64,000 nucleotides of DNA from an uncultured virus (IMG/VR IMGVR_UViG_3300027782_006468). Its lineage: Duplodnaviria; Heunggongvirae; Uroviricota; Caudoviricetes. The notes under the pieces are model-generated. The model made no database searches. It had not been told where the DNA came from and saw only the letters and a list, made by a program, of their open reading frames with translations. The translations under genes and the position numbers were made by a program. Where the stretch lies: positions 1 through 64,000 of the IMG/VR virus record IMGVR_UViG_3300027782_006468. One strand, 5' to 3'. How positions within the stretch are numbered: position 1 is the stretch's first letter; every line of letters begins with the position of its first letter. Of the stretch, positions 21,256-44,431 are shown in pieces.

Positions 21256-21256
21256 A

Positions 21257-23974
21257 TTATTCCTCTAAACACTTTTCAAATTGTTTCAAAACTTCATCAT
21301 CCGTTTGATATTTTTCATCATCAGAGGCAGGGTTTTTCAACACAATAACCCTAAAATCTAACTCCTTAGTTGGATATTTCTGTTGCCATCTTTTGTTTGG
21401 ATCTCTCAGATTCCTTTCTAATGAATACCCATTAAATCCTCCAGATGGCGGAGAAAGCCTCACTCTAAGTAAGTTATCTTTCTTTAATTCTTCTTCCCAT
21501 CTAAAAACATCTTCTTCCCAAAAGAATATTCTGTTTTTTTCTCCCATAGCATCTTCGGCTTCTATAGAGATATAATCTTTTCCATTTTTGGTTTTGTTTT
21601 TTTTTGTAGACAAAACTTTAATCTCGACAGGAACAATGCAATTTTCATGTTCCCGCAAAATTTGAAATGTATACCCCTTAAAATCAGAGCTTTTCTCCAA
21701 GTCATGTTCCCATGCAAATCCATAATATTTCAACTCACAAGATGAAACGCTTCTCAATTCTTTGGCAAATGTTTTATCTATCTGATGATCATCGGAATTG
21801 AAATCAACAAGTTTTGGCAAATCAAAAACCTTAGATTCATCAAACTTTTTAATCGCCCTTTGTCTTCTTGCCCATATTTTTTTCAATTCTTTTAACTTAT
21901 TGTAAGTTTTCTTGACCAACATTTTTTTATAAAATCTTTCAGTCTGAACTTCTACAAAGTCATCAGTGCCTTTGACCTTAATATATTCAACCTCAATTCT
22001 TCTTTCTCCAGTAGTACTTTCGACAATTTTTTCAGTTTCTATGATTTCATCAATATCATATTTTTTCCATTCTGGATCATCGAAAACATTATCGCCAACC
22101 AAATCAGTTAACTTTCTAGATTCTCCAACACAAATTTTAGAAAAATCTTCTTCGTAATTTTCCATGCCGTCTATAAATCTTTTTCTCTTGTCCTCTATTT
22201 TTTTAACAGCAGATTTATAATGTTCGTAAAATTTCCAAAGCGTAATTGGATCAGCATCTTTGAAGCAACGCAATCCAACAAGTGCTTTTAATATGCTAGC
22301 ATCTGTTCCAAACTTAAAAAGAAAATCTTCAAAATTTGCATATGGCTGATTATCAACAATTTTTTTCGCTGGTATTTCTCCTACGCCTTTAATGTTTGAC
22401 AATCCATAATAGATAACATCATCAACAAGAGAAAAGGTTTCTTTAGACTTATTTATATCGACCTTTTCCATCTCAACATCATGCCGTCTTGCCTCTATCT
22501 TGTAGTCCTTTATTTTATCGCTCAATGTTTCGCAGCTAAGAACAGCAGCGTAAAATTCTTGAGGATGATGAGCCTTTAGATATAATAATCGAGAAGAAAC
22601 ATAGGTATAAGCAACGGAATGACTCATATTGAAGCCATATTCTGCGAAAGATTTTATCTGTTCCCACAAGCTCTGAACTTCTTCCTGAGTAGCATCTAGA
22701 TTTTTTTGTCCATTTTCAATAAACATAATTTCATATTTCTTAAAAGCTTCTGCCTTCTTTTTAGAAATAGCTTTTCTTACAACTTCACAATCTCTTAAAG
22801 GAATTTCACCAACAATATTTAAAATTTTCATAATCTGTTCTTGAAAAACCATAACTCCATATGTGTTTCCAAGAATAGGCTCAATCAATGGATGTAAGGT
22901 GTATTCTTCTTCTTCTTTTTTTCTTTTCGTATATCTTTCATGCATTAACATGCCAAGAGGACCGGGGCGATACAAAGCCGTATATGCAACTAAATCTTCA
23001 AATCTATCAACACCACCAGCTTTTACCAATCTTCTTATGCCTTCTGAATCAAATTGAAATATGCATTTCAAATCACCTTCATTTGCCATAGCCAAAGATT
23101 TTTGATCATTTCTCCAAGAAGAAACATCTGTCCAATCAGAGTCATCATTGTTAGCACATATGCTTTTTATATTTTTTCTTTTTTTGACCAATTCGCAACA
23201 TGTAGATATTTGTTTTAAATTAGAAATTACAAGCAAATCAAATTTAACCAAACCTACTGGTTGTAAGTCTTGACCATTAAGACCTTCCACCCAAGCAGAT
23301 GCTTGCGGATTATCTTTTCTTTTTACTAATGGAACCATATCGGACAAAGGAACTGAACTTATAATCAAACCTCCAGCATGTTGACCCATACCTCTATTTC
23401 TATTGATTAACTTGTGTGCTGCCGCAGTTGCTTCGGGATGATCTTCACAATATTTTTTCAATTTTGGATACAATTCCATGGCAGATTCCCATGTCATAAC
23501 ATTCCCATCTTCATCTTTTGAATCAAGATTCTTGGTAAGTTCAAGTATTTCTTCTCTAGGATTGTCATGAACCCGTGCCATATCAATCAAGGCACTCTTC
23601 ATTCCAAAAGTTGTATAGTTGCTAATATTACAAACATATTCTTCACCAAAAGTTTCTAAAGCCCACTTGTTTTTTAAATAATCACGAACTTCAGACAAAT
23701 AATCCACATCAATATCTGGCATATCGCCTTGGACAAATTTTGGATCAACATCGACATTAAAATCATCACATATACCAAGAAGCCAAGGAACAATGATATT
23801 GTTTGTATTTTTAAATTTATTTTTCTCGCTAAATAATTTCAAAAAATATTCAGCTTTTCCTTGAACATCTATTTCTCGAAGCTCCCACTCAAGCCTTTTG
23901 CGATATTTTTCTCCAAGATTTCTTTTGTCGAAAACATGCCACAAACCTTTTTCTAATTTTTGAAAAGCATTCAT
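21257..23974 (-). CDS. dnaE: DNA polymerase III alpha, C-terminal part (catalytic palm, fingers, HhH, OB)
   Basis: MPDIDVD, GQHAGG, GLVKFDLL, IFQFDS, ALYRPGP, VFQEQIM, YGFNMSHS, GLSNIKGVG; no PHP domain; GGAG RBS. Confidence 0.93.
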   Translation of the reverse strand: MNAFQKLEKGLWHVFDKRNLGEKYRKRLEWELREIDVQGKAEYFLKLFSEKNKFKNTNNIIVPWLLGICDDFNVDVDPKFVQGDMPDIDVDYLSEVRDYLKNKWALETFGEEYVCNISNYTTFGMKSALIDMARVHDNPREEILELTKNLDSKDEDGNVMTWESAMELYPKLKKYCEDHPEATAAAHKLINRNRGMGQHAGGLIISSVPLSDMVPLVKRKDNPQASAWVEGLNGQDLQPVGLVKFDLLVISNLKQISTCCELVKKRKNIKSICANNDDSDWTDVSSWRNDQKSLAMANEGDLKCIFQFDSEGIRRLVKAGGVDRFEDLVAYTALYRPGPLGMLMHERYTKRKKEEEEYTLHPLIEPILGNTYGVMVFQEQIMKILNIVGEIPLRDCEVVRKAISKKKAEAFKKYEIMFIENGQKNLDATQEEVQSLWEQIKSFAEYGFNMSHSVAYTYVSSRLLYLKAHHPQEFYAAVLSCETLSDKIKDYKIEARRHDVEMEKVDINKSKETFSLVDDVIYYGLSNIKGVGEIPAKKIVDNQPYANFEDFLFKFGTDASILKALVGLRCFKDADPITLWKFYEHYKSAVKKIEDKRKRFIDGMENYEEDFSKICVGESRKLTDLVGDNVFDDPEWKKYDIDEIIETEKIVESTTGERRIEVEYIKVKGTDDFVEVQTERFYKKMLVKKTYNKLKELKKIWARRQRAIKKFDESKVFDLPKLVDFNSDDHQIDKTFAKELRSVSSCELKYYGFAWEHDLEKSSDFKGYTFQILREHENCIVPVEIKVLSTKKNKTKNGKDYISIEAEDAMGEKNRIFFWEEDVFRWEEELKKDNLLRVRLSPPSGGFNGYSLERNLRDPNKRWQQKYPTKELDFRVIVLKNPASDDEKYQTDDEVLKQFEKCLEE

Positions 23975-24048
23975 AAGTAACTCCAAATAAAATGAATTAA
24001 TATTGTATCACGAAATCTAAATAAATCTAGTCAACAAAAGGAGCATAT

Positions 24049-26319: not shown

Positions 26320-26350
26320 TAGCAGGAGGCTTTATCATAGCAGGAGGCTA

Positions 26351-27043
26351 ATGATTTTACATGGAAGTAAAGAAAAAATCTTAATTTGTATGCCCACCTA
26401 TCACTCTAAAATGGAGTGGCTTGTTCGATCTGTAGATTCATTGCACTTTCAAACATATAAGAATTTTGATTGCTATGTTGTAAAAGATGGATGCTCAGAA
26501 TCATGCACATTTACCAATTTTGAAAAAACATGTATTGAATGTGCAGATTGCAAAAAAACAAGAATATTTTTTGAAAAAGTTTGCAAGGCAGATTCTAGAT
26601 TTAAATTTTTTACATTGCCAATACATCATAGCGGTGCAGGTTGGGGTCCAAGAAATTTTGCCATCATGAATACACATCACAATTACATTGGATATCTTGA
26701 TGATGATAATTGGTATGAAAAAGATCATATAGAATTACTTTATAAAACAATAACTGAAACCAAAAGCGACATGTGCTACACAGGAACCAGACTTTACGAT
26801 CACAACAAAAAAGTTGTCGGAGAAAGAATTCATAATGATATTCCAAAAGCTGGTTATATAGATACTTCTGAGATTATGCACACTAGATACCTTATAGAAA
26901 AACACGGAGGTTGGCGCTATGTAAAAAAGTGCAATGATTGGGATATAGTTTCAAGATGGGTTCCCGATGTGAAATGGAGTCACACCAACAAGGTAACACT
27001 TAATTTCTTTCTGAGGGATGGATGCGGAATACACAGGAAATAA
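26351..27043 (+). CDS. family 2 glycosyltransferase
   Basis: ICMPTY, YVVKDG, PRNFAI, IGYLDDDN, IDTSEIMH, DWD. Confidence 0.9.
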   Translation: MILHGSKEKILICMPTYHSKMEWLVRSVDSLHFQTYKNFDCYVVKDGCSESCTFTNFEKTCIECADCKKTRIFFEKVCKADSRFKFFTLPIHHSGAGWGPRNFAIMNTHHNYIGYLDDDNWYEKDHIELLYKTITETKSDMCYTGTRLYDHNKKVVGERIHNDIPKAGYIDTSEIMHTRYLIEKHGGWRYVKKCNDWDIVSRWVPDVKWSHTNKVTLNFFLRDGCGIHRK

Positions 27044-31300: not shown

Positions 31301-34300
31301 GCAAAGACGGAGCTTGCACGGGTTGCCCTTCTCCATGTGCCGAAGACGAATCGTGCTGCGAAGGAGGAACGACATGCTGCAAGGTCTGCTGTAATGATGG
31401 GTGTTGTGCGGATACCGATCATTGCGGAGAAGGTGGTGCATGCACTCCATGCGAATGTACCGCTGGACAAACCTGCTGCGGTCCTAATTGTTGCGATCCG
31501 GGAAAAGAATGCTGTGGTTCTGGAAGTAGTGCAACATGTTGCACCGGAGATCAATACTGCGATGGAACTGGACACTGCGCATCATGCAACCCAGTATGCT
31601 ACCCGAACGAAACATGCTGCGGTGCGTCTGGATGTATAGCAAACAAGTGTGGCGACTGTCCTAATTCGTGTCCAGAAGGAATAGTTTGCTGCGGTCTTCC
31701 TCACCACGAGGTGTGTTGCGGCGAAGGTCAAACTTGTGTCGATAATAAATGTTACGGATGTACGCCTCCTTGTTCGGAAAGTCAAGATTGCTGCGATGAG
31801 GTGTGTACCGAACTTGGAACCGACACAGATTGTACTGGTTGCGGTGCAGCTTGCGGAGAAGGAACAAAATGTTGCGGTGGCTCATGCATAGATGTGATGG
31901 ATGATGTGAACAATTGTGGTGGTTGCGGTGTCGTGTGCGAGGAAGATGGTGCAACTCCTCTTTGCTGCGATGGAACTCCGACAGCAAATGGAACGAATGA
32001 AAATTGCTTGAGTTGCGGAGACACAGCCGATCCAGACAATGCGACAAACCCTACATCATGCTGTCCTAAAGCAGTTGTTGTTGCTGGCGCTCCAGACACC
32101 TCGACTTTCTTTGTTACCGCTACAAACAGTGACGACAAGAATTGCGGTGGTTGCGGAAATGTTGCTGACACATCGCCACAAGTGCAAGAAAAATGCTGTG
32201 CGGGTGAAATCGTTAGCCTTTTGACTGATCCAGACAACTGTGGAGGGTGTGGCGTTAGGGTTGTTGATCCTATGAGTTGCTGTCCAAGTTGGGGTCCGCC
32301 AAATCAGTTTGGCGATCTACCAACACCAACCTCTGGTCCAGTAAACACACAAACAGACAACGACCATTGCGGCGGTTGCAACATCCCATGCAATCCAATA
32401 GAAACTGGTGATGACTGCCCACCTCCCGGCGCTCCACCAACGACAAAATGCAAGGATGGCACATGTGTGCCATGCGGAACATGCAAGCTTCCGACAGAAC
32501 AACAACAAGCACAATTGTTGGGATCTCAACCAACTGTATGGGGGTCACACACGACCATACCATGCACCTATGACGGATGTCCTATGCCGGTAACCGATCC
32601 GCCAACTCCTGCCCCTCCGGGGAAAACATGCTTCGGTGGCTGTGACTACAAAGCGGTAGGAAATGTTGGAAACCTGTCATGGGAACTGGTTGGTTGCGAA
32701 TGCTACGACTCTTGCACACTTCCAGAATGCAACGCCTCAAATCCACATGCCACTCCATGTCCAAGTGTTGGAACCTGTTCTGGAGAAGGACCTTGCGGCG
32801 GATGCCTTTATGACGACTATGACCATCCTTCTGCATACAAATGCTTCGCGCCATGGGGTCATGATACTGTTAGCTGCGGGAGTCTCTATAACTATAGTAG
32901 TACATTTGGCTATTGCTGTACGAAAGACGCAAATCATCCAAATGGCGGAGTTCTATGTCTTAGTGGCAGTTGTTCAGGTGCTGCGGGAGACTGCGAACCT
33001 TGCGGCGGATCATGTGCCGCAGGACTTACATGTTGCGGGGTTTTTCCGAATGATGTGTGTTTGAACCTGAAAACGGATGAAAGTCATTGCGGATCATGTA
33101 CGAATGTTTGTGCCGCAGGAGAGACATGCTGTAATAGCTCATGTAAAAATACCAACACAGACAATAACAATTGTGGCGGTTGCGGTATAAAATGCAGTGG
33201 AGTTTCGGAATGTTGCAATGGCAGCTGCAAAGTTCTAAACACTCCAACTAATTGTGGTGCTTGCGGAATAGTATGTACTGTCCTTGAACCACTCTGTTGC
33301 AACAATAACTGCACACCGTCTGATGAATTCAACTGCGGAGGGTGCGGAAGAACATGTGATGCTGGTGAAAAATGTTGTGATGGTGAATGCACAGAGGTGA
33401 TGGGCGATGACGAATCTAACTGCGGTGATTGTGGCTTTACTTGTGCTTCTAGTGGAACTTGCTGCTCTGGCGAATGTATCGAAAACCAATGCGGAACATG
33501 TCCTACTGCATGTACCGAAGGTCAGGGATGTTGTGGTACGCCTCCAAATCTAACTTGCACCGATCTTGGAACAGACGAAAACTGTATCAGTTGTGGCAAT
33601 GCTTGCGCTGCAGGAACGAAATGTTGCTTTGATGGAGTTGAAAACTTATGCATATCAGTAATGGGTGCTGATAAAAATAACTGTGGCGATTGTAACATAA
33701 TTTGTGAAAATAATGAACGATGTGAAGACGGTGTATGCATAAATTTAAGTGAAGGGTGTGATCCGGAATGTGTTGAGGGAGAAGAATGTTGCGAAGGAAC
33801 TGCCTGTTGTAGTCTGCCAGAATTTCAATGTTGCTCTGGCTCATGTACTGCCGTTTTCTCTTTCCAAACAGATAGTTCCAACTGCGGAAGTTGTGGAAAC
33901 GCTTGTGCTGCTGGCGAGCAATGTTGCAATGGCGATTGTATTGCCACTAGCTCTTTCCAAACAGATGAATCTAATTGCGGAACTTGTGGTAACGCTTGTT
34001 CCGGAAGCCAAACTTGTTGCTCTGGCTCATGTATCGCCACTAGCTCTCTCCAAACAGATGAAGCAAACTGCGGAACTTGCGGAAACGCTTGTGGTGCTGG
34101 TGAAACATGTTGCTCTGGTGTTTGTAAAGCACTTCAAACAGATGAAGCTAATTGCGGAACTTGCGGAAACGCTTGTGGTGCTGGTCAAGAATGTTGTAGT
34201 GGTGTTTGCAAAGCCGTACAAACTGATAGTTCCAACTGCGGAACTTGCGGAAACGCTTGTTCCGGAAGCCAAACATGTTGCTCTGGATCATGTATCGCCA

Positions 34301-36267
34301 CTAGCTCTCTCCAAACAGATGAAGCAAACTGCGGAACTTGCGGAAACACTTGTTCCGGAAGCCAAACATGTTGCTCTGGATCATGTATCGCCACTAGCTC
34401 TCTCCAAACAGATGAAGCAAACTGCGGAACTTGCGGAAACGCTTGTGCTGCTGGTGAACTATGTTGTTCTGGTGTTTGCAAAGCCGTACAAACAGATGAA
34501 GCTAATTGCGGAACTTGCGGAAACGCTTGTGCTGCTGGCGAACTATGTTGTTCTGGTGTTTGCAAAGCCGTACAAACAGATGAAGCTAATTGCGGAACTT
34601 GCGGAAACGCTTGTTCCGGAAGCCAAACTTGCTGCTCTGGATCATGTATCGCCACTATCTCTCTCCAAACAGATGAAGCAAACTGCGGAACTTGCGGAAA
34701 CACTTGTTCCGGAAGCCAAACATGTTGCTCTGGCTCATGTATCGCCACTAGCTCTCTCCAAACAGATGAAGCAAACTGCGGAACTTGTGGTAACGCCTGT
34801 AGTGCTGGCGAACTATGTTGTGGTGGTGTTTGTAAAATCGTACAAATAGATGAAGCTAACTGCGGAACTTGTGGTAACACTTGTGGTCTTGGTCAAGAAT
34901 GTTGTAGTGGTGTTTGTAAATCATTACAAACAGATGAATTTAATTGCGGAACTTGCGGAAACACTTGTGGTGCTGGCGAACTATGTTGTTCTGGTGTTTG
35001 CAAAACCGTACAAACAGATGTAATAAACTGCGGAACTTGTGGTAACACTTGTGGTCTTGGTCAAGAATGTTGTAGTGGTGTTTGCACAGTATTTCAAATA
35101 GATGAAGACAATTGCGGAAGTTGTGGAAACGCTTGTGCTGCTGGAGAAACTTGTTGTAATAGCGTTTGCACAGTATTACAAACAGATGAAGGTAATTGCG
35201 GAATTTGCGGAAACATGTGTGGTGCTGGTCAAGAATGTTGCTCTGGTGTTTGTAAATCAGTACAAACAGATGAAGCTAATTGCGGAACTTGTGGAACTGT
35301 ATGTGGTGCTGGTCAAGAATGTTGCTCTGGTGTTTGCAAATCAATACAAACAGATGAAGAAAATTGTGGAACATGTGGAACTGCATGTGCTTCTGGCTAC
35401 ACATGTTGCTCTGGTGTTTGTAGAAACACAGCAACCGATCTCAGCAATTGTGGAACATGCGGAAGCTCTTGTAGCGGAACATGTTGCAACGGCTTTTGCA
35501 AAGCGACATATGAGGATGAATTAAATTGTGGTGATTGCGGAATAGAATGTGCTGTTGGCGAAACATGTTGCTATAGCATCCTTTTGAACACTGGAGTTTG
35601 CAAAGCCGTACTAACAGATGAAGCTAATTGTGGAACTTGTGGAAACACTTGTGCTGCTGGTTACACATGTTGCTCTGGTGTCTGCAAAGCACTTCAAACA
35701 GATGAAGCTAATTGCGGAACTTGCGGAAGTGTATGTTCTGCTGGCTACACATGTTGTGATGGTGTCTGCAAAGCACTTCAAACAGATGAAGCAAACTGTG
35801 GAACTTGCGGAAACGCTTGTGCTGCTGGAGAAACTTGTTGCTCTGGTGTTTGTGCAAATACAGAAACAAGTTCATCTAATTGTGGATCTTGCGGACACGC
35901 TTGTGCTGCTGGAGAAACTTGCGAAGAAGGAATTTGCTCTCTGCCTCCACTAACAATAAAATTAGTTTTCCGTGCTTTCGCATGTGCAAGTAATTTTTCA
36001 AATCTTTCAAGTGAGCTTTCTGCTGGATCTAGAAGTGTTAGCTTCACAATCACTGTCAGTGGAACTACTTTTGCCAGTGGTTCTGTTTCAAACATTGGAC
36101 CCGGAGGAGTTGCAGCAACCTTAGCATCAATTACGATTCCAACAGGAACATCATTTAATATAAATATAAGTGGATATGCTGGATCTGCAATTATTGGTAG
36201 TACTAGAGCATCTGGTCAACTGACTTATACTGGTGCTGTTAAAACTGCAGATAATAATGCATGTTAA
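28303..36267 (+). CDS. giant cysteine-rich protein (2654 aa) with STIG1-like CCxGxC..TDxxNCGxCGxxC repeats
   Basis: Single uninterrupted ORF; dozens of repeats; GGAG RBS; Cys-poor beta-rich C-terminal domain. Confidence 0.9.
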   Translation: MIDPKLVENWNIIFALADKACGHFATYEAIVLVPRPCTGGSSAYWTLGTSCPDGCTSSPPSELPTNPPCDPNYPDNGTENDIIGCCGGIVEVECTGTCCNCGGVQCEPSETCCDNVCVDLQTDHDHCGGCPIVCEPSESCKNGVCKGACASSNCSWTWSEGCQADCAYVLLDGVYVQNQFCTEGSNCICPAAPAVTESSPLYVYISCVGNPRPSGVWSQTSTCPQGCTCPEEAPTTNGTTNGQVITHECVSCSPPCGEGQDCCGGECKNIYEDSNNCDGCGNVCPEATPTCCNGECCVSNNCCSVDGTNTCIDVMNDPNHCGDCITFCSGPETTTPQKCCHGECKFTETDNENCGSCDFPCPVGYTCCFGVCKELYGDDRLNCGDCGKTCPVGEFCKDGNCVDPCTLEECSYTWDAQTCTFMYNNPNGYKICSGTAVMKWVPTGPPSDPDSITGTCPGRWDTVVPCEYSDNCGCINGYGFEQTIGPCWEYTQECYCGQRNDVITPCGAIFPVLDPVIGWAGGTWEQLTDCDGCPKPVDPPAIPACMGQTYSFNCAGSWIYRPCPSCVCPINEPLREGTPNEKVSSPCKNCDPACGANQKCCNHVCKNILTDVRNCGDCGRDCGSAAGTACCRGTCVNTLTEELYCGGCNTVCAWSETCCNGFCKDTHTDPANCGSCGHPCAAGEVCCNSFCVNTNTDRNNCGSCPFVCPNADKCIDGRCVPCDPPCLEAGTACCNNSCIDILSDENNCGGCNIPCAGKCCNGSCVLDLNTMYNCGDCGIACPQMINQINLWQCCNGQCKNLKTDPENCGFCGRVCQEPPGDTFKVPKCFLGNCAEPECVCLGGETPGPDDVVFVSTCLGNTISCEGSCYFENVGGSWVLHEEPGGTGFSGSCGKEPDYTYCVDDKYACVGDIYYCVKPIEGQDMPTYCIPKPSFDPLAQALIGSYIGAENCAAGCSGDGSCPDGCANGLTCCNTECVDTQTDSANCGGCGGGPCASDETCKDGACTGCPSPCAEDESCCEGGTTCCKVCCNDGCCADTDHCGEGGACTPCECTAGQTCCGPNCCDPGKECCGSGSSATCCTGDQYCDGTGHCASCNPVCYPNETCCGASGCIANKCGDCPNSCPEGIVCCGLPHHEVCCGEGQTCVDNKCYGCTPPCSESQDCCDEVCTELGTDTDCTGCGAACGEGTKCCGGSCIDVMDDVNNCGGCGVVCEEDGATPLCCDGTPTANGTNENCLSCGDTADPDNATNPTSCCPKAVVVAGAPDTSTFFVTATNSDDKNCGGCGNVADTSPQVQEKCCAGEIVSLLTDPDNCGGCGVRVVDPMSCCPSWGPPNQFGDLPTPTSGPVNTQTDNDHCGGCNIPCNPIETGDDCPPPGAPPTTKCKDGTCVPCGTCKLPTEQQQAQLLGSQPTVWGSHTTIPCTYDGCPMPVTDPPTPAPPGKTCFGGCDYKAVGNVGNLSWELVGCECYDSCTLPECNASNPHATPCPSVGTCSGEGPCGGCLYDDYDHPSAYKCFAPWGHDTVSCGSLYNYSSTFGYCCTKDANHPNGGVLCLSGSCSGAAGDCEPCGGSCAAGLTCCGVFPNDVCLNLKTDESHCGSCTNVCAAGETCCNSSCKNTNTDNNNCGGCGIKCSGVSECCNGSCKVLNTPTNCGACGIVCTVLEPLCCNNNCTPSDEFNCGGCGRTCDAGEKCCDGECTEVMGDDESNCGDCGFTCASSGTCCSGECIENQCGTCPTACTEGQGCCGTPPNLTCTDLGTDENCISCGNACAAGTKCCFDGVENLCISVMGADKNNCGDCNIICENNERCEDGVCINLSEGCDPECVEGEECCEGTACCSLPEFQCCSGSCTAVFSFQTDSSNCGSCGNACAAGEQCCNGDCIATSSFQTDESNCGTCGNACSGSQTCCSGSCIATSSLQTDEANCGTCGNACGAGETCCSGVCKALQTDEANCGTCGNACGAGQECCSGVCKAVQTDSSNCGTCGNACSGSQTCCSGSCIATSSLQTDEANCGTCGNTCSGSQTCCSGSCIATSSLQTDEANCGTCGNACAAGELCCSGVCKAVQTDEANCGTCGNACAAGELCCSGVCKAVQTDEANCGTCGNACSGSQTCCSGSCIATISLQTDEANCGTCGNTCSGSQTCCSGSCIATSSLQTDEANCGTCGNACSAGELCCGGVCKIVQIDEANCGTCGNTCGLGQECCSGVCKSLQTDEFNCGTCGNTCGAGELCCSGVCKTVQTDVINCGTCGNTCGLGQECCSGVCTVFQIDEDNCGSCGNACAAGETCCNSVCTVLQTDEGNCGICGNMCGAGQECCSGVCKSVQTDEANCGTCGTVCGAGQECCSGVCKSIQTDEENCGTCGTACASGYTCCSGVCRNTATDLSNCGTCGSSCSGTCCNGFCKATYEDELNCGDCGIECAVGETCCYSILLNTGVCKAVLTDEANCGTCGNTCAAGYTCCSGVCKALQTDEANCGTCGSVCSAGYTCCDGVCKALQTDEANCGTCGNACAAGETCCSGVCANTETSSSNCGSCGHACAAGETCEEGICSLPPLTIKLVFRAFACASNFSNLSSELSAGSRSVSFTITVSGTTFASGSVSNIGPGGVAATLASITIPTGTSFNINISGYAGSAIIGSTRASGQLTYTGAVKTADNNAC
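33865..35930 (+). repeat. tandem array of 84-nt (28 aa) and 93-nt (31 aa) coding repeats
   Basis: Near-identical CAAACAGATGAAGC(A/T)AA(C/T)TGCGGAACTTG(C/T)GGAAAC units. Confidence 0.95.
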
Positions 36268-36301
36268 AAAAACAGGCTTGAAAATCAAGCCTGTTTTTTT
36301 T
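36266..36301. terminator. bidirectional intrinsic terminator
   Basis: AAAAAAACAGGCTTGA-AAA-TCAAGCCTGTTTTTTTT between convergent genes. Confidence 0.9.
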
Positions 36302-36320
36302 CTTTAATTTATAATTTTTT

Positions 36321-36623
36321 CTATTCTTTGTAGGCTACCCATCGGTTACGAACAAATAAAAGATTTGCAAAAAACCCGCAAAAGGCAGAAATGAGATTTC
36401 CCGCAAACGGAACATATAGTTCGCCTACTGGATTAAGCACGAATGAAATTCCCAATGAAAACCAAAAACTGCTGCATTCATGGCAGAGCATTGGAACATT
36501 AACATACGGTATCTTGGCTACCAAGTTTCTAAAAGGTCGTGCAACATCGGTATCAGACCAAGCGTAAGCGACACCAAGACATGTGACCAAATAAATCAAA
36601 AACATCATAGGAAATATACCCAC
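36321..36623 (-). CDS. small membrane protein with CxxC (DUF1360-like)
   Basis: Three hydrophobic segments; PFRNLV...LCHECSSFW. Confidence 0.55.
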   Translation of the reverse strand: MGIFPMMFLIYLVTCLGVAYAWSDTDVARPFRNLVAKIPYVNVPMLCHECSSFWFSLGISFVLNPVGELYVPFAGNLISAFCGFFANLLFVRNRWVAYKE

Positions 36624-37024
36624 ATATAGTCAAATTCTCGAACAACAGAGAAACTTCTGAATGTTTTTCCAACAATAGTCTTGTTGAAATTAGCCCAAGC
36701 TTCATCACCAAGCTGAACCTTGAATACTTTGCCACCAATAGCATTGTTTACTCTTTTTAGCCTAATAGCTTCGAGTTCTTTGACTATCGCAGCCTTGTCC
36801 TTGTAATACTTTTCCAAGATATTCGGATCAGTAGTCACTTTATCTGAAAAGAACTTGCCAACCTTACCTCTGCATGAGCAGTTTGGGTTGGTCTTTAATG
36901 TTGTTAGGTCGGCAAGAATATCTGGAAATTCCGCCTTTAGTTCAGCGAATGAACTTTCGTCCTTGATGATCATATAGATGAGATCTGGCATCGTGCCAAG
37001 ATCTACAGTGATTGTAGTTTCCAT
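36605..37024 (-). CDS. hypothetical protein with NPNCSCR motif
   Basis: 139-aa ORF overlapping the membrane-protein gene. Confidence 0.7.
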   Translation of the reverse strand: METTITVDLGTMPDLIYMIIKDESSFAELKAEFPDILADLTTLKTNPNCSCRGKVGKFFSDKVTTDPNILEKYYKDKAAIVKELEAIRLKRVNNAIGGKVFKVQLGDEAWANFNKTIVGKTFRSFSVVREFDYMWVYFL

Positions 37025-37075
37025 AAAATTAATATAGTTTTATTGTTTTATTTTTTTGATTTTTAAAAATATTTT

Positions 37076-38438
37076 TTACAAATCAAAACAAATAGATCTA
37101 CCGCCTCTAGCCTCAGACATGAATCGACTAAACAAAAGACCTTCATATACTGGATCTACATCAGTAATTCCAAGACAATAGCAAATTAAAGAACCACAAG
37201 CACTTCCCCTTCCGGGTCCAACAGCTTGAGTTCCATCGCCACCTATATTTTCTCTGCACCACCTTCTTGCTTCATCAGTCATCATCTTTTGAATAAGAAA
37301 ATATGTACTAAAACCTTTACGAGTTATAAGGCTCAACTCTTCAATTATTCTATTTTTATACTCTGTAGTCATTGGCAAATTACGATGTTTAAATCCTCTC
37401 AAGACTTCATCCTTAAGCCTTTGGTCACAATCTGGAAATATAGGTAGTTTCAGACTTCTATCTAATTCGACACCTTTTGCTTTACGACAAATCTCTACTG
37501 TATTTTTTTTAGCTTCGCAAAAAATTTCATAAGGAATAATATCTTTATAATCACTCAGCCACTTTTCATTAAGTTCTTCCTCAGATTTCATCCATAAATT
37601 AGCATCCTGCAATTCGAAGAAATCCTGCATTGAATCTTCTTTCATTGCCCTTTGAATTTCTTTTAATGTTCTGTTGGTCTGAACCATCAACATAAGTCTT
37701 TGCAAGTGACTATCTTCTTTACGGCAATAATGACAATCTTGCGTAAGAATAATCTTCAATCCAAATTTCTGCTTTGCTTTAACAATAAAAGCGTCATAAG
37801 GTTTTTGTTTAACAAAATCTAAAAGCATAATTTCAAGCAGATAATTTTCTTTACCAAACATCTGAATGTATCGTTCTATCATTTGAAATCCAGCTTCTTC
37901 TCCGCCAGCATCAAATGCTCTGCCAACTTCGCTGTTATAGCAACAACTTGTAAAAAATAAGCCTTCTTTATGCTTCTCAAGTTGTTCGTAATTTACTCTT
38001 GGCTTTCTATAAAATCCTTTCGTCCAACCCCAAGATGTCAAACGAACAAGATTTTTATATCCAGTTTCATTGTATGCTATGGCTAATAAGTGTGGACTTG
38101 CTCTCAGTTCCAATAATTCACTTGGAGAGAGAGATTCAGAAAATTTTTGCATGTCTGACAAAGAAGAGGATTGCGGTTGCAATCTATTTACATAAAGTTC
38201 CGCAGCGAATATGGGAGAAAGTTTATTTTTCCCATATTTATCACATATCTTTTCGCATGCTTTAATTTGTCTGGGAACTGCTCCCAACATGCCATGATCA
38301 CTAATTGTAAGAAAATTTTGATTTATTTCTGTAGCACGAACCGAATATTCTTCGCATGTTCCAAGCCCATCGAGGACGGAAAAATCGGAGTAACTAATGA
38401 AGGTGGAGATGTTCAAAACCAACAATCTCCACCTTCAT
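37076..38438 (-). CDS. dnaE: DNA polymerase III alpha, N-terminal part (PHP domain and start of palm); frame interrupted by 7 nt after codon 14
   Basis: AAGGAG RBS, ATG 38438 MKVEIVGFEHLHLH then TAGTTAC, then in another frame SDFSVLDG, ISDHG, HLLAIA, GFYRKPR, TQDCHY, VGPGRGSACGS, LLFSRF. Confidence 0.88.
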
Positions 38439-38447
38439 TGTTACTCC
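38387..38447 (-). promoter_or_regulatory. 23-bp hairpin sequestering the dnaE-N RBS, start codon and in-frame TAG
   Basis: GGAGTAAC(T)AATGAAGGTGGAGAT 38387-38410 is the reverse complement of ATCTCCACCTTCATTGTTACTCC 38425-38447, with one bulge. Confidence 0.85.
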
Positions 38448-38458
38448 TTTCGTAAATG

Positions 38459-39253
38459 TCATTGTTCAATCTCTTGTTTAGTTTGAAGCCAAATTAAAAA
38501 TTCTTGCTTATCGTACTTTGCATTTTTACGACAATTCTCAGAAGCTGAAATTGGTCGTAAATTCTCCAGACAATTAATCAAAGACAAATCGTAAATCTTA
38601 TGATCTGAAAACGCCTTTATTGGGAAAATATGGTCAATATGCCACTTTCCATTTTTTACCTTTTCATAATTCTCATGATTGATTATATGATTTTGCAATT
38701 CTTTATAATCATAGCCAAGTAAAGCTGAAGTTTTAGACTTTTTTACTCTGCCAGTAACAGCCAAACTCATACTCAACAACTTATACGATCTCTGTCGAAA
38801 TATCAAGTCCATTTTAAATTTCTCTCGATCATCAACCCATTCATAATGATTTTCTCCAGATCGTTTGGCAATTCCGCAATCCCAACATCTTTTACCTGTT
38901 CTGAAATTATTCCAAGAGATCTTTGCTTCTTTGCCACAAGAACAAATATATCGCATATTCTTGGAAGACTTTTCGTATTGATCCAAAAGCATACAACCAA
39001 CGGCTGCGAATTCAGATTTTATTTTTTCATGAGAATAAGAGAATCGTTCGCTTATTTTGCGAGAACCGCAATTTTTACATCTATTGCCAGATTTGAAACT
39101 ATAAAAAACAATTTTAGATTCGTTTCCACAAGAACAACGATACCTCATTGGTGTGCGAGCATTGATATAAGTATCTTCTAATAATTTGCAACCATTTTTT
39201 AAGAAGAAACTTTGAACGAATTGATAGGTAAGTCTTTGACTTGAATATTTCAT
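38459..39253 (-). CDS. free-standing HNH homing-endonuclease-like protein with N-terminal zinc-ribbon repeats
   Basis: Two CSCG...RCxxCG repeats; WHIDHIFP...LENLRPISASENCRK. Confidence 0.85.
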   Translation of the reverse strand: MKYSSQRLTYQFVQSFFLKNGCKLLEDTYINARTPMRYRCSCGNESKIVFYSFKSGNRCKNCGSRKISERFSYSHEKIKSEFAAVGCMLLDQYEKSSKNMRYICSCGKEAKISWNNFRTGKRCWDCGIAKRSGENHYEWVDDREKFKMDLIFRQRSYKLLSMSLAVTGRVKKSKTSALLGYDYKELQNHIINHENYEKVKNGKWHIDHIFPIKAFSDHKIYDLSLINCLENLRPISASENCRKNAKYDKQEFLIWLQTKQEIEQ

Positions 39254-39255
39254 AA

Positions 39256-39282
39256 AACCTCCAATATATTTAGTTGGAGGCT
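39256..39282 (-). promoter_or_regulatory. RBS-sequestering hairpin with late-promoter-like CTAAATA in the loop
   Basis: Minus strand AGCCTCCAA-CTAAATATA-TTGGAGGTT immediately before ATG 39253. Confidence 0.65.
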
Positions 39283-39326
39283 TCACAATTATTTCAATCT
39301 TTTAGACGGTTCTGCAGAATTAAAAG

Positions 39327-39548
39327 TTATTTCTTAATTGATGCCTTTGTAGGTTCTTCAGACTGTATTTTTTTCCATTTTTCAAATTCATCAGATAAAG
39401 CTTGAGCTTGAGCTTCAAGTTCTTTTAATTTTACCTGTGTTTTTTCATAATACTCTTTTAATTGTTGTTTAATCTGTTTTTTCTCATTGTGAATTTCAGA
39501 AACTCGCTGAGAAAAAGTGACAAATTCATCTGATAATAGCCAATCCAT
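39327..39548 (-). CDS. coiled-coil hypothetical protein
   Basis: 73-aa ORF with AAGGA RBS. Confidence 0.7.
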   Translation of the reverse strand: MDWLLSDEFVTFSQRVSEIHNEKKQIKQQLKEYYEKTQVKLKELEAQAQALSDEFEKWKKIQSEEPTKASIKK

Positions 39549-39559
39549 AATTTTTTCCT

Positions 39560-41137
39560 TTATTTCTTTTCTCGAATTCTTACATTAGCAGGATCATTAT
39601 CGAAACATTCGAATACGACATCAGTACCATCATGACCTTTGGTGGAAAGAAAAACATCATTTCCCCAAATGAATCTTAGACCAACCAATACATCTCGGAC
39701 ATAAGGCTCATGAAGCGGTCTGCCTTCAAATGTATGCTCAAGCATCAGATAGCCCTTACCACGATAATTAGGCTCTGTTAAACGAATATCTGGCAGTCCT
39801 CCATTTACATGGCGAGCCATCAACAATTTTTTTATCTTATTGTAATCATGACTTTCAAGAATCGTCTCTCCGCTTGGATAACGCTTATGTTCAAAGTATT
39901 CTTGTTCTCGACAGAAATCCTCAGTAAAAAATTCATGTATTAAAGTTAGATCATCGTAATACTTTCTAACTTCAAAAATCTTTTCCTTACCAAGCATTGC
40001 CTTGGTATCCCATTTTTCTTTCTTACTAGAATTTGTGCAATCATCCCATTCATTGCCGAATTGACCTTTATCCCAACGATTGCGAATATCGGACAAAAGA
40101 TTATATCCTAGCTTATAAGGATTGGTGCTATATTTTCCACCAAGAACACCCATCTTGTGTGCAGCGTATTCAATGATTCCAGAATCATGAGTCTTTTGAC
40201 CCAAGCCGACATAACCCTGTTCTGCCATGATAACATGGTCAGTCATAGAAGCCCAGCCCTCGTTTAATACTTTGGTTTGTCTCTGTGGGAAAAAATAAAT
40301 TGATTCTTCATAGATCATAGACATGATATCTTGTTGCCAAGGCTTAAGTGGAGCATTATCACGCAAAAATCCAAATATATCTTTAACTGGTTCTATAAAA
40401 AATCCAAGTTCCTCTGCAAGATCTTTATCTTTTACCTTTTCATTTTCTCTTTCTTTGAACTCTTTTGTGTTGATGTAATTATCCATATAGAAGCGATCAC
40501 TATCAACTTTAAGTCTTTTTGGAAATCTATAATTTCTTTTATCAATAATATTTCTATCTTTGATAACTTTTTGATGCCAAGCCGATGCTCCATCAACCAA
40601 AGTATCGATGCGAAGTAAATAATCAAGAAATTCAGTAACCTTTTCCTTGCCCCATCTAGCCATATATTTTTTAATACGGCTACTATGATTTGCCATGTTG
40701 TTCAACATGTTTGTATCAGTAGCAGAAAAGTGAATATTATTTTTAAAGAAATCATTATGACCAGTGGCGTGAGCGATAACAGTCAGATGATCCAATAATG
40801 TGTTGCTATCTAAGCAATAGATGTAACATGGCGATGTATTGATTACCATCTCATATATTTTATGCATTTGATTTTCATATCCACGCTGCAATTCTTCATA
40901 TTGCATGCCAAATGACCAATGTGGATATCGTACTGGAAAACCACCATACGCTGCTACTTCGGATATTTCATCGTAGGTAAGAAGCTGCACTACGGTTGGA
41001 TAAAAGTCCAAACCCCAATCTTTACAAACATTCAAAATTATTTGAGCATATTCTTTTAATTGTTTTGGAAGCTGAACTCCGGGAATTGTGTTATCGCCAA
41101 TAAGAAGTGAAGAACCATGCATGAACTTATTAGACAT
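39560..41137 (-). CDS. spoVR: SpoVR/YcgB family protein
   Basis: GFPVRYPHWSFG, IYEMVIN, AHATGHNDFFKNN, TKVLNEGWAS, NPYKLG. Confidence 0.93.
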   Translation of the reverse strand: MSNKFMHGSSLLIGDNTIPGVQLPKQLKEYAQIILNVCKDWGLDFYPTVVQLLTYDEISEVAAYGGFPVRYPHWSFGMQYEELQRGYENQMHKIYEMVINTSPCYIYCLDSNTLLDHLTVIAHATGHNDFFKNNIHFSATDTNMLNNMANHSSRIKKYMARWGKEKVTEFLDYLLRIDTLVDGASAWHQKVIKDRNIIDKRNYRFPKRLKVDSDRFYMDNYINTKEFKERENEKVKDKDLAEELGFFIEPVKDIFGFLRDNAPLKPWQQDIMSMIYEESIYFFPQRQTKVLNEGWASMTDHVIMAEQGYVGLGQKTHDSGIIEYAAHKMGVLGGKYSTNPYKLGYNLLSDIRNRWDKGQFGNEWDDCTNSSKKEKWDTKAMLGKEKIFEVRKYYDDLTLIHEFFTEDFCREQEYFEHKRYPSGETILESHDYNKIKKLLMARHVNGGLPDIRLTEPNYRGKGYLMLEHTFEGRPLHEPYVRDVLVGLRFIWGNDVFLSTKGHDGTDVVFECFDNDPANVRIREKK

Positions 41138-41155
41138 CTTATAAATCCTTAAATT

Positions 41156-42352
41156 TTACTTTGATTTTTGATTACCCATCAAACTTTTAATTGCATCTAA
41201 AATTTGATTATTTCTAATTTCATCATCACGCATATTCGGATCATTAGGATTTCCATTTCCAAAGTTAATTTCGGTGGTACGAATATTATTCTTATCAAGC
41301 TCTCCACTTTCCAACGCCTTATCGACATGATACTTAACACTATTGGTATAGTTGTAAGGCAAAATTTGTGTGATCCCGACTAAATTAATATCCTTTTCTG
41401 GAAATGATTCTTTTAATGTGTTGATAAATACTTGATTATCATCGCCCCAATTATCTCCATCCGTAAAGTAAAAAACATAAATGTTCCACTTTTGCGGAGG
41501 GTATCTATTCTCAAATTGCTTTTGAATAAATTTCAAAGCAGAAGAACAAGTTGTTCCTCCACCATATCGGTAGTTATAAAACTTTTCTTCATCTACTTCC
41601 ATGGCAAGAGAATCGTGCCACACAAAAAGTCGATCAACTCTTTTGTAAAATTGTCTAATCCAAACATCAATCCACCAAGCCATATCTGAGACGATCTCGC
41701 ATTTAGCTTGATCCATCGATCCAGATCCATCACGGGCATAAATGATCAAAGCATTGCTAGAAGGAACTTTAACTTCTTTATATTGCCTATAACGCTTGTC
41801 ACGCTTAATTGGCTTGATTGTCTTCATGGGCATGCTAAGACCCGGAACTATTTCAAAATTATTAGCAGTTCCATCTGCACATTGCCTTTTTAAAGCTTCG
41901 ATAAAAGTTCTTCTATTATGACGCAAAGATTCGGGACCAACCAAAGATATATTATTATATTTGATTTTTACTTCATCGAATGTATCATTTACTTTTGGCT
42001 TTAAATTTGGCAATTCCAGTTCATCTTGCATGAACTTCAATACAGTTTCCAAATCAAGACTTACGGTGATTCCTTCACCTTCATCCTGAGTTGCTCCATT
42101 GCCCTTTCCTTTTTTACCCTTATCAATGACATCGCCATCCTTGCCTTTACCTCTGCCGATGCCATTGCCGTTATCACCATAAAGAATTTGAGGAATATCA
42201 ATTTTTGGAATTGTGATAGAAATTTTACCTCGTTTGCCACGAGATTTTACTATCTGTCCAGATTTGATAAACTTTTTAAGTGCTTTACGAAGTTTGCCTG
42301 AGACAACATCTATAAAGTCTTTATGATCTTCTTCAATTCTGCGTGGACACAT
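41156..42352 (-). CDS. yeaH: YeaH/YhbH (DUF444) vWA-like protein
   Basis: LELPNL, RDGSGSM, GGTTCSSA, YPPQKWNIY, TDGDNW. Confidence 0.93.
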   Translation of the reverse strand: MCPRRIEEDHKDFIDVVSGKLRKALKKFIKSGQIVKSRGKRGKISITIPKIDIPQILYGDNGNGIGRGKGKDGDVIDKGKKGKGNGATQDEGEGITVSLDLETVLKFMQDELELPNLKPKVNDTFDEVKIKYNNISLVGPESLRHNRRTFIEALKRQCADGTANNFEIVPGLSMPMKTIKPIKRDKRYRQYKEVKVPSSNALIIYARDGSGSMDQAKCEIVSDMAWWIDVWIRQFYKRVDRLFVWHDSLAMEVDEEKFYNYRYGGGTTCSSALKFIQKQFENRYPPQKWNIYVFYFTDGDNWGDDNQVFINTLKESFPEKDINLVGITQILPYNYTNSVKYHVDKALESGELDKNNIRTTEINFGNGNPNDPNMRDDEIRNNQILDAIKSLMGNQKSK

Positions 42353-42358
42353 GTTCTA

Positions 42359-44431
42359 TTATTCCTCGGCTAGATCGCCTCTTGCAAATATAGATCCAAC
42401 AAAATCCAGAACATCAGTTGCAGATCTTTCGTTATAACCATACTGTTTGATAAGGCGAGTTTTAATCGCATCTATTTTTTCTTGAATATCCTTATCAACC
42501 ACAGTTGCTCCGCTAACATTAAGTGCGGACAACTTAATGGTATCTTTTACATCTTCAAAAAGCTTTGCTTCTAAAGCTTTTCTCAATTTTGGATTAGAAT
42601 CCCAACTAAATTGCTTGTGCTTGATTGCAAGGTCGCCAATAAAAGCAGCTATCTGCCTACGGAAATCATCAGCACCCGGTTCTGGTATATCGATCTTAGA
42701 TTCAATGGCTCGCATCAATCTTTCGTCAGGCTTTCTATCTTGCCCTGTGATTGGGTCTTTAATCTTACTTTTGTTGATATACGCCATGATATTATCAATG
42801 TAATTGGCACAAAGTCGAATGATCGCATCTTCGTCACCAACAAGAGCCTTCTGAACTTCGGCTTTTAAAATTTCAGTCAACTTCTTAACCACCAAATCAA
42901 TGCATGTGATATATCGACCAACATCATCCTTATTGTTCAACAAAGAACTTCCTTCTAAACCTTCACGAAGCTCATTCAGAACCATGAACATATTTACATA
43001 GTCATGATTATTGGCTAAACAATTTGAAAGCTTATCTTGAACATAACGAACTGAAACACCACGGGTCATACCCTCATCAGGATACCTATCCTTCAATTCC
43101 TTGACTTGCTCTTCTGTCCATCCAGAAAGAAGCTTGCCGTCATAAAGCTCTGCTTTTTCGACTAAGGAAATTTTACCATCCTTATCATCATGAAGTCTGG
43201 TTAGAACTGCCCATAGAGCAGCAACTTCAAGTGTGTGTGGTGCGATATGTTGTTTGACCCTATCTACACCATAATCTTTTTCCAAGATTTTAAGTTCTTC
43301 GCCCCATCGAAGAGTATAAGGAACATCGATCTTTACAGTCCTATCACGCAACGCTTCCATATATTGGTTGCTTCGAAGCCTTTCGTATTCAGGACTATTG
43401 GTATGACAAAATATTGCCTCATCAATAGAAACTTGTGCAAACTTCTTTGGCTTAATACTTTGTTCTTGGCTTGCACCCAATAGATCATATAAAAATGCTT
43501 GATCTAACTTCAAAGCTTCTATAAACTCTATCATTCCCCTGTTTCCGACACAAAATTCTCCGTCAAAATTAAAGCTTCTTGGGTCAGAGTCAGAACCAAA
43601 AGTGCTGATGCGACTAAAATTAATATCGCCTGTGAGTTCTGTAGAGTCTTGATTTTTTTCATCTTTAGGTTGGAATGTGGCGATACCAACACGATCTGCT
43701 TCGCTATATGTTTTTCGAATTACTCGAATATGTTTTTCAAGAACTTTTTCGAGATCTCCATCATACCTAATCAAAAGTTCTTTCATGAAGAACTTGCATC
43801 TTGGATCAAGCTCTCCCTCACACTTCAATACATATAGTTCATTTCTTTCTTCTGCAGATACAGACTCAGAAAGAACTCGATTCAAATCATCCATAATGGG
43901 TTTACGAATTTCTGGCGGGAGCAACTTAAGTGGCTGCTCATGCATTGGGCATTCATCTTCTTCTTTGACATAAATTCCATCTTGTCCAGTCGGAAGATTT
44001 ATCCATTTGAAAGTATACCAAGCACCGGCATCGGTTGTAGAATAGTTTTCCAATTCTCGCTTGAACAATCTACAGATTGTAGATTTAGAGCTACCTACAG
44101 GTCCGTGCAAAAGAAGAATTCTTTTTTCAGTACCAAAATATCCAGCTGCACCTTTGATGAACTTAACCAAAGAATCCTTAGTTGGTGTCAGACCAATGAT
44201 TGGACATTCCTGATTATCAAAGAAATTATAATGTTTGTATGTCTTTCTATATTCTTCAACGGCATGACAGCCCTTTTCCATAATCATGTCGTAAATCATT
44301 TGCCAAGAATTACGGACAAGTCTTGGCTGCTGATAGCACAGATCAATGTATTCGGAAAATGACATTTCTCCGTTAAGAATTTTAAATTTGCTTTGATTGA
44401 ATCTACCTATAAATCTTTTAAGTTCGTCCAT
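42359..44431 (-). CDS. prkA: PrkA/YeaG AAA+ serine protein kinase
   Basis: RILLLHGPVGSSKST, CPMHEQPL, QPKDEKNQDSTELTG, DPRSFNFDGE, EALRDR, HIAPHTL. Confidence 0.95.
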   Translation of the reverse strand: MDELKRFIGRFNQSKFKILNGEMSFSEYIDLCYQQPRLVRNSWQMIYDMIMEKGCHAVEEYRKTYKHYNFFDNQECPIIGLTPTKDSLVKFIKGAAGYFGTEKRILLLHGPVGSSKSTICRLFKRELENYSTTDAGAWYTFKWINLPTGQDGIYVKEEDECPMHEQPLKLLPPEIRKPIMDDLNRVLSESVSAEERNELYVLKCEGELDPRCKFFMKELLIRYDGDLEKVLEKHIRVIRKTYSEADRVGIATFQPKDEKNQDSTELTGDINFSRISTFGSDSDPRSFNFDGEFCVGNRGMIEFIEALKLDQAFLYDLLGASQEQSIKPKKFAQVSIDEAIFCHTNSPEYERLRSNQYMEALRDRTVKIDVPYTLRWGEELKILEKDYGVDRVKQHIAPHTLEVAALWAVLTRLHDDKDGKISLVEKAELYDGKLLSGWTEEQVKELKDRYPDEGMTRGVSVRYVQDKLSNCLANNHDYVNMFMVLNELREGLEGSSLLNNKDDVGRYITCIDLVVKKLTEILKAEVQKALVGDEDAIIRLCANYIDNIMAYINKSKIKDPITGQDRKPDERLMRAIESKIDIPEPGADDFRRQIAAFIGDLAIKHKQFSWDSNPKLRKALEAKLFEDVKDTIKLSALNVSGATVVDKDIQEKIDAIKTRLIKQYGYNERSATDVLDFVGSIFARGDLAEE

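Follow-up and report, generated by a model that had tools for sequence, protein, structure and literature searches.

The DNA analysed here, called the window below, consists of the first 64 kb (64,000 nucleotides, nt) of a 76.9-kb viral contig (IMG/VR record IMGVR_UViG_3300027782_006468). The contig covers approximately 16% of the estimated genome and has a G + C content near 32%; the source of the window is a fragment of a huge phage. The minus strand carries dnaE-N, the first part of a split gene for the DNA polymerase III alpha subunit (Pol III alpha). Near its 5' end, directly after the last histidine of the HLHLH motif, the coding sequence is interrupted by 7 nt that begin with a stop codon. 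A preliminary description of this sequence had proposed that ribosomes hop over the insert. The comparison with related loci described below suggests that they probably do skip the whole 7-nt gap, and that the gap lies within a mobile nuclease cassette. The features at the 5' end of dnaE-N are:

37076..38389, minus strand: dnaE-N, the part after the gap, resuming at TCC (Ser) (Pfam PF02811, 7.1e-30; PF07733, 1e-23)
38387..38408, minus strand: 3' arm of a hairpin, extending over the L-H-L-H codons, the gap of 7 nt and TCC, where reading would resume; bulge at A 38395 (fold)
38390..38396, minus strand: coding gap TAGTTAC; its stop TAG occupies 38396-38394, and TAC at 38392-38390 is the presumed landing triplet (sequence read; contigs of two other DNA runs)
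38397..38399, minus strand: putative take-off codon CAT, the final His of HLHLH (CAY in every short-gap allele)
38427..38447, minus strand: 5' arm of the hairpin, with a Shine-Dalgarno (SD)-like element, ATG 38438 and the K-V-E codons (fold; covariation across 24 alleles)
38444..38450, minus strand: AAAGGAG, at the base of the 5' arm; it may be the SD sequence of ATG 38438 or else an SD-like element inside the coding sequence, translated as K-G-V (sequence, fold)
38460..38462, minus strand: upstream in-frame ATG, candidate true start, adding the 8-codon extension MTFTKGVT and overlapping the stop of the preceding HNH gene as ATGA

On the minus strand ATG 38438-38436 opens MKVEIVGFEHLHLH, which is followed by the TAG at 38396-38394. 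After the gap, the +1 frame reads TCC GAT TTT TCC GTC CTC GAT GGG (SDFSVLDG) and is open to 37076. The ribosome binding site, ATG 38438, the insert starting with TAG and the shifted SDFSVLDG were thus found as they had been described, both in the minus-strand sequence and in its translations. Removal of the 7 nt restores a contiguous PHP motif, as had also been claimed: the result matches the uninterrupted relatives, and Taq Pol III alpha aligns without insertion to one of these, L008, across HLHxH[ST]xFSxLDG. The TTG start chosen by the caller of open reading frames (ORFs), at 38425, belongs to the downstream frame and bypasses the HxH motif, and translation confirmed that this version of the protein lacks it. 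Gene callers shorten these polymerase genes, with loss of the metal-binding HxH from the annotation.

In a comparison made with assembled contigs, not raw reads (for the DNA and the RNA runs alike), contigs from DNA runs X2 and X5, obtained in other studies from approximately 99% identical strains, cross 38367-38468 without any insertion or deletion. The gap is genuine DNA and not an assembly artefact.

An alternative genetic code was considered and rejected, as TAG terminates 8 of the 58 long ORFs and is a real stop, and recoding of TAG would leave the frame broken. ARAGORN found no tRNA or tmRNA gene in the window or in the 76.9-kb contig, so that a suppressor or special tRNA cannot be invoked from this fragment.

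Gaps, start codons and hairpin in related dnaE-N genes

A search with the downstream protein, which is unbiased by the N-terminus, identified 61 related viral loci (54–100% identity). These were classed by hand from their 5' ends and with Rfam:

Short gap, 25 of 61 loci: begins with a stop, directly after the last His of HLHLH
Hairpin gap, 4 of 61 loci: 40–47 nt, placed after H[ST]D, two codons further on, and holding a GC-rich hairpin
6-nt gap, 3 of 61 loci: TAACTT or TAACTA between SVL and DG
Group I intron, 4 of 61 loci: at FSL|LDG, with two distinct intron sequences
Uninterrupted, 25 of 61 loci: including L063, which looks degraded

Stop-initiated gaps therefore occur at the same codon in relatives with 60–88% protein identity, and the hairpin is conserved as well; a comparison of orthologous 5' ends was among the checks suggested in the preliminary description. 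Further variants came from two pattern scans. In total at least 18 distinct short-gap sequences were counted by hand, with lengths of 5 nt (1), 6 nt (1), 7 nt (6) and 8 nt (10). Among the matches listed, the first triplet was a stop in all 18 (TAG 15, TGA 2, TAA 1), and the last triplet was NAY (TAC, TAT, AAC, AAT, GAC or CAC) in 14 of the 18 gap types. The NAY triplets share positions 2 and 3 with CAY; they encode Y, N, D or H, with no conserved residue. The window has CAT for take-off and TAC for landing, which match at two of three positions with a possible G.U at the other, and L075 has an exact His pair, CAT to CAC. At the 6-nt gaps the candidate take-off and landing triplets are both Leu codons (CTC/CTT, CTT/CTA and CTT/CTT; CTA/CTT in L248). 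This pattern fits the predicted re-pairing of a peptidyl-tRNA in the P site, for which the available text of the T4 gene 60 preprint grants "considerable latitude" (10.1101/2022.08.31.505936).

Longer gaps occupy neighbouring positions in the same motif. Locus L062 has both an 8-nt gap and a 46-nt stop-initiated gap with a hairpin. The 46-nt gaps after SLL start with a stop (TAA in L062, TAG in L175); among the long hairpin gaps after H[ST]D only that of L039 does so (TGA). The 40–42-nt hairpin gaps after H-T-D in L070, L120, L121, L014 and L019 are homologous to each other (TGCCCCCGG ... CCGGGGGCGCAA). They differ by 1–2 nt in length, end in AAC or GAA, and mostly have no stop right after the take-off codon, some having ATA or TTA there. 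The group I introns scored 90.7 bits (L046) and 102.4 bits (L061) with RF00028; L047 and L048 share the DnaE-N protein of L046. These introns, at 2767-2992 in L046 and 2769-2996 in L061, break the FSL|LDG codons of dnaE-N and contain no internal endonuclease gene. In L061, an HNH gene lies directly 5' of dnaE-N, in addition to the intron within the same motif.

Both sides of the short gap have been kept. EHLHLH is invariant in 26 of 26 short-gap alleles (the window included), which were found through downstream homology. In these 26 alleles the 36 nt before the gap have 3, 2 and 7 variable sites at codon positions 1, 2 and 3, with only F/Y replacements in the last seven codons, and the two other reading frames give many differing peptides. 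Without exception [ST]DFS.LDG follows immediately 3' of the gap, and downstream ORFs of at least 446 amino acids (aa) have stayed intact. In most variants the stretch of the downstream frame that runs from the preceding stop to the S/T codon has no ATG, GTG or TTG (for example in L015, L033, L050, L052, L058 and all 6-nt gaps), so that the second part cannot initiate alone. The TTG codons of the window are not general among gapped relatives. Within similar cassettes gaps differ by one base in length (TAGTTAC, TAGTTTAC, TAGTTAAC); with such mixed lengths no single frameshift (+1, +2 or readthrough) serves all of them, while skipping of the whole gap can. Judged by these comparisons the gap probably reflects recoding rather than decay, with both flanks under selection.

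The upstream ATG (38462-38460) lies eight codons 5' of ATG 38438, just outside the hairpin. An in-frame ATG with an open frame was present 10–19 codons before the Phe codon in 27 of 27 distinct short-gap alleles; uninterrupted genes mostly start 5–8 codons before it. Most short-gap alleles have conserved AAAGGAG or AAGGAGG, which within the extension is read as K-G-G/V/D. In L248 no start codon follows the AAAGGAG(G) motif, which is therefore coding at least there. In the extension the motif may act as peptide, as internal SD-like element, or as both. The earlier idea of a start codon locked in a hairpin thus holds in part: ATG 38438 is in the stem, but the start that is used may be ATG 38462, outside the hairpin. 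ATG 38438 may be a second, internal start.

The hairpin runs from 38447 to 38387 on the minus strand and has 23 outer and 3 inner pairs. A single base bulges out of it, A 38395, at the second position of the stop. The minimum free energy was -40.6 kcal/mol; 200 dinucleotide shuffles gave -19.3 +/- 3.3 (z = -6.4), and not one of them was as stable. The near-perfect 23-bp stem with one bulged stop-codon A is as had been reported. All short-gap and hairpin-gap alleles had fold z values of -2.2 to -6.9, versus -1.7 to +1.4 in uninterrupted alleles. In the relatives the 5' arm is the proximal start-codon region, and the 3' arm is made up of the LHLH codons, finishing at the take-off codon or a few bases beyond it. 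In the 6-nt-gap alleles the arms are different (CACCGTGAAATC with GATTTCTCGGTG): one lies over the start codon, and the other stops 3 nt short of the take-off codon.

Across 24 short-gap alleles, 96.6% of cells pair, versus 30–48% when the partners are slid by 1–3 columns. Compensatory change was seen in 6 of the 16 pairs (e.g. C-G to A-U and A-U to G-C), versus 0–2 when slid, and none of 500 shuffles reached the observed pairing or compensation values. The median pairing of 12-nt arms was 10/12 in short-gap and 6/12 in uninterrupted alleles (Mann-Whitney 1e-13). These pairing statistics are inflated by the relatedness of the alleles; the compensatory arm series (CAAGTG/CACTTG, CAGGTG/CACCTG, CAGATG/CATCTG) is clear nonetheless. 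The hairpin belongs to the gap device, as it covaries in short-gap alleles and is absent from uninterrupted ones.

The HNH gene and other neighbours of dnaE-N

Two further genes of the window are of importance here:

38459..39286, minus strand: free-standing HNH-type endonuclease gene, 275 aa, directly 5' of dnaE-N (PHROG 559 'HNH endonuclease', 1.8e-17; phrog_1035 'endonuclease VII', 3.1e-08)
21257..23986, minus strand: dnaE-C, the second polymerase half, with the remaining core, fingers and HhH (PF07733 positions 100-259, PF17657, PF14579)

The HNH gene ends in a TGA stop that shares bases with the upstream ATG of dnaE-N. A Pfam search assigned no family to this 275-aa ORF. The ancestral or conserved 5' neighbour of dnaE-N is SpoVR (L008, L010, L038), and in the window the HNH gene sits between SpoVR and dnaE-N. 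Immediately 5' of dnaE-N, an HNH homologue or remnant was found in 9 of the 24 lineages with an interruption (the window group, L033, L036, L039, L055, L057, L060, L061 and L062) versus 1 of 19 uninterrupted lineages (L035), using tblastn and PHROGs (Fisher one-sided 0.014, for lineages that were defined by the analyst and are not independent). The 83-aa ORF upstream in L006 is not recognisable as an HNH remnant, and similarity to the window there is limited to approximately 35 nt ahead of the cassette.

Gapped and gapless alleles are interleaved in the DnaE-N tree: L011 stands beside L012, L062 beside L028, and L008 and L009 fall within a 7-nt clade. This tree has 43 rows; L040, L051 and L063 were omitted as partial, and L058, L059 and L061 were lost to the trimming filter. 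The 42-nt segment that begins at the proximal start and ends at the take-off codon is 88–100% identical among short-gap lineages whose gene bodies are 62–82% identical; for gapped-versus-gapless pairs the same 42 nt are 67–84% identical. From these patterns we infer a cassette made up of the HNH homing-endonuclease gene, the N-terminal extension, the hairpin and the gap, with a patchy distribution. For the MobA/gene 60 cassette of T4, the available part of the preprint describes recent, repeated insertions, loss of the nuclease while the gap stays, and protection of the carrier's target (10.1101/2022.08.31.505936). By analogy, the gap in dnaE-N may protect the carrier from its own HNH enzyme.

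Other insertions were encountered in or near dnaE-N. A TnpB/Cas12f-like gene lies upstream of it in L029. In L033, L035, L044 and L053 the dnaE-N ORF has 831–886 aa, compared with the usual 450 or so, which suggests inteins or other in-frame insertions. dnaE-N is a hot spot for mobile elements. Four relatives have a full-length tmRNA gene (RF00023, 100–130 bits) 0.6–2.3 kb 3' of dnaE-N:

L014: 5501-5853
L039: 6216-6579
L046: 6703-7061
L025: 4959-5302

A phage tmRNA adjoining a gene on which ribosomes would stall at a stop is possibly of note.

The downstream frame of dnaE-N comprises the PHP domain together with core positions 3-98 of Pol III alpha, and stops just before the catalytic PDxD. 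With relative L008 as the query, solved DnaE structures matched at 2.8e-39. The two dnaE halves are 13 kb apart, with the break just before PDxD, and the split is common to all relatives. dnaE-C opens with its own degenerate copy of the module that closes dnaE-N. A split intein at the end of dnaE-N was ruled out, since only approximately 9 residues follow the last core position and dnaE-C starts with the degenerate junction module.

Between the dnaE halves, on the opposite strand, lies an ORF of 2654 aa (28303-36267, plus strand) with 27 STIG1-like cysteine-rich repeats (PF04885, 3.8e-156). Its G + C content is 44–48%, versus approximately 32% elsewhere. A trio of PrkA, DUF444 (YeaH-like) and SpoVR genes is present in this phage genome at 39560-44431 (minus strand).

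Ribosomal hopping and its alternatives

The hop would proceed as follows. Translation would begin either at ATG 38462, by coupling to the HNH stop, or else at ATG 38438, and would read as far as ...EHLHLH. With CAU (His) in the P site and UAG entering the A site, decoding would stall. The peptidyl-tRNA-His would then detach, the ribosome would slide 7 nt, and the tRNA would re-pair with UAC, with standard pairs at positions 2 and 3 and G.U at position 1. UCC would be decoded next, and HLHLH would run straight into SDFSVLDG, as it does in relatives without an interruption. At take-off the 3' arm of the hairpin would be inside the ribosome and the 5' arm behind it, so that the stem could form only as the ribosome advances; re-pairing of the arms behind the ribosome probably gives the forward direction or stops back-slipping. 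A role of this kind for mRNA pairing behind the ribosome is proposed for gene 60 in the available text of a further preprint (10.1101/2024.12.09.627546). Ribosomes that do not hop would release a peptide of 14–22 residues, and the gap would limit the output of DnaE-N. At the DNA level, the gap disrupts the part of the gene whose DNA is most conserved; by analogy with T4 MobA/gene 60, the phage's own nuclease would spare the carrier, and gapless alleles of co-infecting phages would be cut and converted.

A number of observations weigh against a hop. The landing triplet is only near-cognate, unlike the strict matching of gene 60. Four of the 18 gap types among the matches listed end in CTT (3) or GTC (1), and the long gaps, with GAY to AAC or GAA and CTC to ATT, match at two of three positions. 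No mini-SD was found approximately 6 nt 5' of the landing triplet, where the preceding CTCCACCTTCATTAG has no G-rich element. A take-off stem-loop inside the gap, as present in the relatives' 40–47-nt gaps, is not possible in 7 nt, and the nascent chain at take-off has only 14–22 residues. More distant relatives have one extra loop residue (HLHLH-TTTGSLLDG), so that a +1 product with two extra residues is structurally conceivable. RNA-library contigs on dnaE-N (runs X19 and X20) gave coverage outside 38214-38621. A second polymerase gene may be located elsewhere in the genome, as the contig covers only part of it. Both pattern scans required GFEHLHLH, which makes conservation there a matter of construction; matches in the second, metagenome scan were mostly unrelated genes, and its variant counts are lower bounds. 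Finally, counts such as the 26 of 26 alleles with EHLHLH come from lineages that share ancestry and are not independent.

The closest competitor is a frameshift at a slow UAG, in which an out-of-frame tRNA would read AGU (+1) and give HLHLH-SY-SDFS, lengthening the PHP loop by two residues. In its favour, +1 shifts are classically stimulated by a stop codon in the A site, 7 nt amount to a net +1, and one extra loop residue is tolerated in some distant relatives. However, gaps of 5, 6 and 8 nt would need -1/+2, plain readthrough and +2, respectively, and those of 40–47 nt are unreadable. The in-frame gap codons also vary as amino acids (SY, SH, KY, VY, AN, VD, AV, VL). At a +1 site of the prfB type, a slippery CUU U precedes the stop and an SD lies 3 nt upstream; CAU UAG offers no slippery re-pairing and has no SD at that distance. 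We regard a frameshift as unlikely. The small ORF before the gap might instead be a mere leader peptide, with DnaE-N starting at TTG 38425 or 38422 and a PHP domain without the HxH ligands. The frame is open from TTG 38425, AGGTGGAG lies just 5' of the TTG codons, and E. coli-type DnaE functions with a degenerate PHP site. Against such a start, in most gapped relatives that frame contains none of ATG, GTG and TTG ahead of the S/T codon, the constancy of EHLHLH goes with mostly third-position change, and the out-of-frame peptide (LLVLNISTFISY) is not conserved; it is very improbable.

Removal of the gap from the RNA before translation, by editing or by endonuclease-ligase splicing, has a precedent of sorts in this family: the group I introns in the same motif (L046-L048 and L061) indicate that RNA-level repair occurs, and the gap lies within structured RNA. 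However, 5–8 nt is far below any known self-splicing element, and Rfam, run over 20000-40000 at a relaxed threshold, gave no match at the gap site. The stop found universally in first position and the near-cognate triplet at the end are marks of translation rather than splicing, and we give RNA removal hardly any credence. The remaining explanation is an assembly artefact, a recent inactivating mutation, or a DNA on/off switch by quasi-palindrome template switching. The gap extends the inverted repeat, insertions of this type could plausibly be made by template switching, and L063 appears degraded. However, independent DNA contigs contain the gap, gapped lineages are 12–40% diverged in protein with both flanks and the ORFs kept, and a simple template switch would add an in-frame TGTTAC and not TAGTTAC. 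This is the least probable of all; quasi-palindrome template switching may explain the origin of the gap, not its persistence. As far as sequence comparison can tell, the data favour the ribosomal hop of the preliminary description over each of the alternatives that were listed there.

A broader proposal, for which we consider the chances evenly balanced, is that dnaE of huge freshwater phages hosts a family of bypass elements independent of gene 60. Its members would be micro-gaps of 5–8 nt with near-cognate landing, the hop being driven by a start-proximal hairpin and an N-terminal extension. They would be carried between phages by HNH enzymes and be interchangeable, within the same 13-codon motif, with 40–47-nt hairpin gaps, 6-nt Leu-to-Leu hops and group I introns.

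Known systems and implications

To our knowledge, efficient programmed bypassing has for decades had a single model, T4 gene 60 and its homologues among topoisomerase genes. A full-text literature search found no description of bypassing or frameshifting in phage dnaE. The closest GenBank phage match is an unannotated 595-kb uncultured phage (53.6% identity) with an uninterrupted dnaE-N, and the GenBank phages include no close cultured relative.

As far as the accessible portions of the gene 60 literature go, the resemblance to T4 gene 60/MobA is considerable. In both, a coding gap lies in an invariant catalytic motif of a split replication-type enzyme, and a stop directly follows the take-off codon. 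Both have a free-standing HNH neighbour, progressive loss of the endonuclease with the gap kept, and patchy, recent-looking insertions. The 40–47-nt gaps of the relatives resemble gene 60 further, in that a GC-rich stem-loop immediately follows the take-off codon and the 3' part is rich in A/U. In contrast, gene 60 encodes a topoisomerase and has a 50-nt gap with matched landing, whereas the dnaE gaps are of 5–8 nt, lack a take-off stem-loop and a mini-SD, have near-cognate landing, lie 14–22 codons from the start and are known from sequence alone. The 5' hairpin is strongly conserved and covaries in dnaE; in the part of their preprint that was available, Manning and Atkins found no conservation of the gene 60 5' stem-loop between clades (10.1101/2022.08.31.505936).

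In the terminase gene of Streptomyces phage phiHau3, 10-nt inserts are bypassed after UUA, with support from mass spectrometry in E. coli; a 5' stem-loop and a flanking Shine-Dalgarno interaction are the proposed stimulators (Antonov et al. 2023, PMC10732093, in the sections available). The terminase likewise has a short non-coding block within a phage gene. However, its trigger is the rare sense codon UUA with the host bldA tRNA, and a regulatory role is proposed there, while the dnaE gaps, on the same partial text, differ in having a stop as trigger, in being shorter and nuclease-linked, and in occurring in many lineages.

Artificial constructs provide another parallel. Weiss et al. reportedly observed, in 1987, low-level stop-hopping of +5 and +6 with E. 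coli reporters. There, as proposed here, the peptidyl-tRNA leaves the codon before the stop and re-pairs a few bases further on, and CTT TAA CTT of the 6-nt gaps has exactly that form. Those constructs were artificial and the hopping low-level, whereas the dnaE arrangement is natural, conserved and located in a presumably needed gene. In the "collaborative homing" of cyanophage psbA, a free-standing homing endonuclease acts together with a group I intron without endonuclease. Locus L061, with an HNH gene upstream and a group I intron, fits a scheme in which any interruption of the target protects its carrier. The interruption in the window differs in being a 7-nt gap that would be handled by the ribosome and not by splicing.

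If true, this would be a second independent natural bypass system. Within one 13-codon motif, the loci bring together at least 18 sequences with short gaps, long-gap designs of several kinds, and gapless alleles as matched controls. They would constitute a natural mutational series for finding out how little a hop requires: a stop, a landing triplet that is near-cognate, a hairpin upstream and a nascent chain of short length. A possible generalisation is that homing endonucleases drive the evolution of recoding signals. Ribosomal hopping would then be a recurrent and evolvable answer to conflict with homing nucleases, rather than a one-off.

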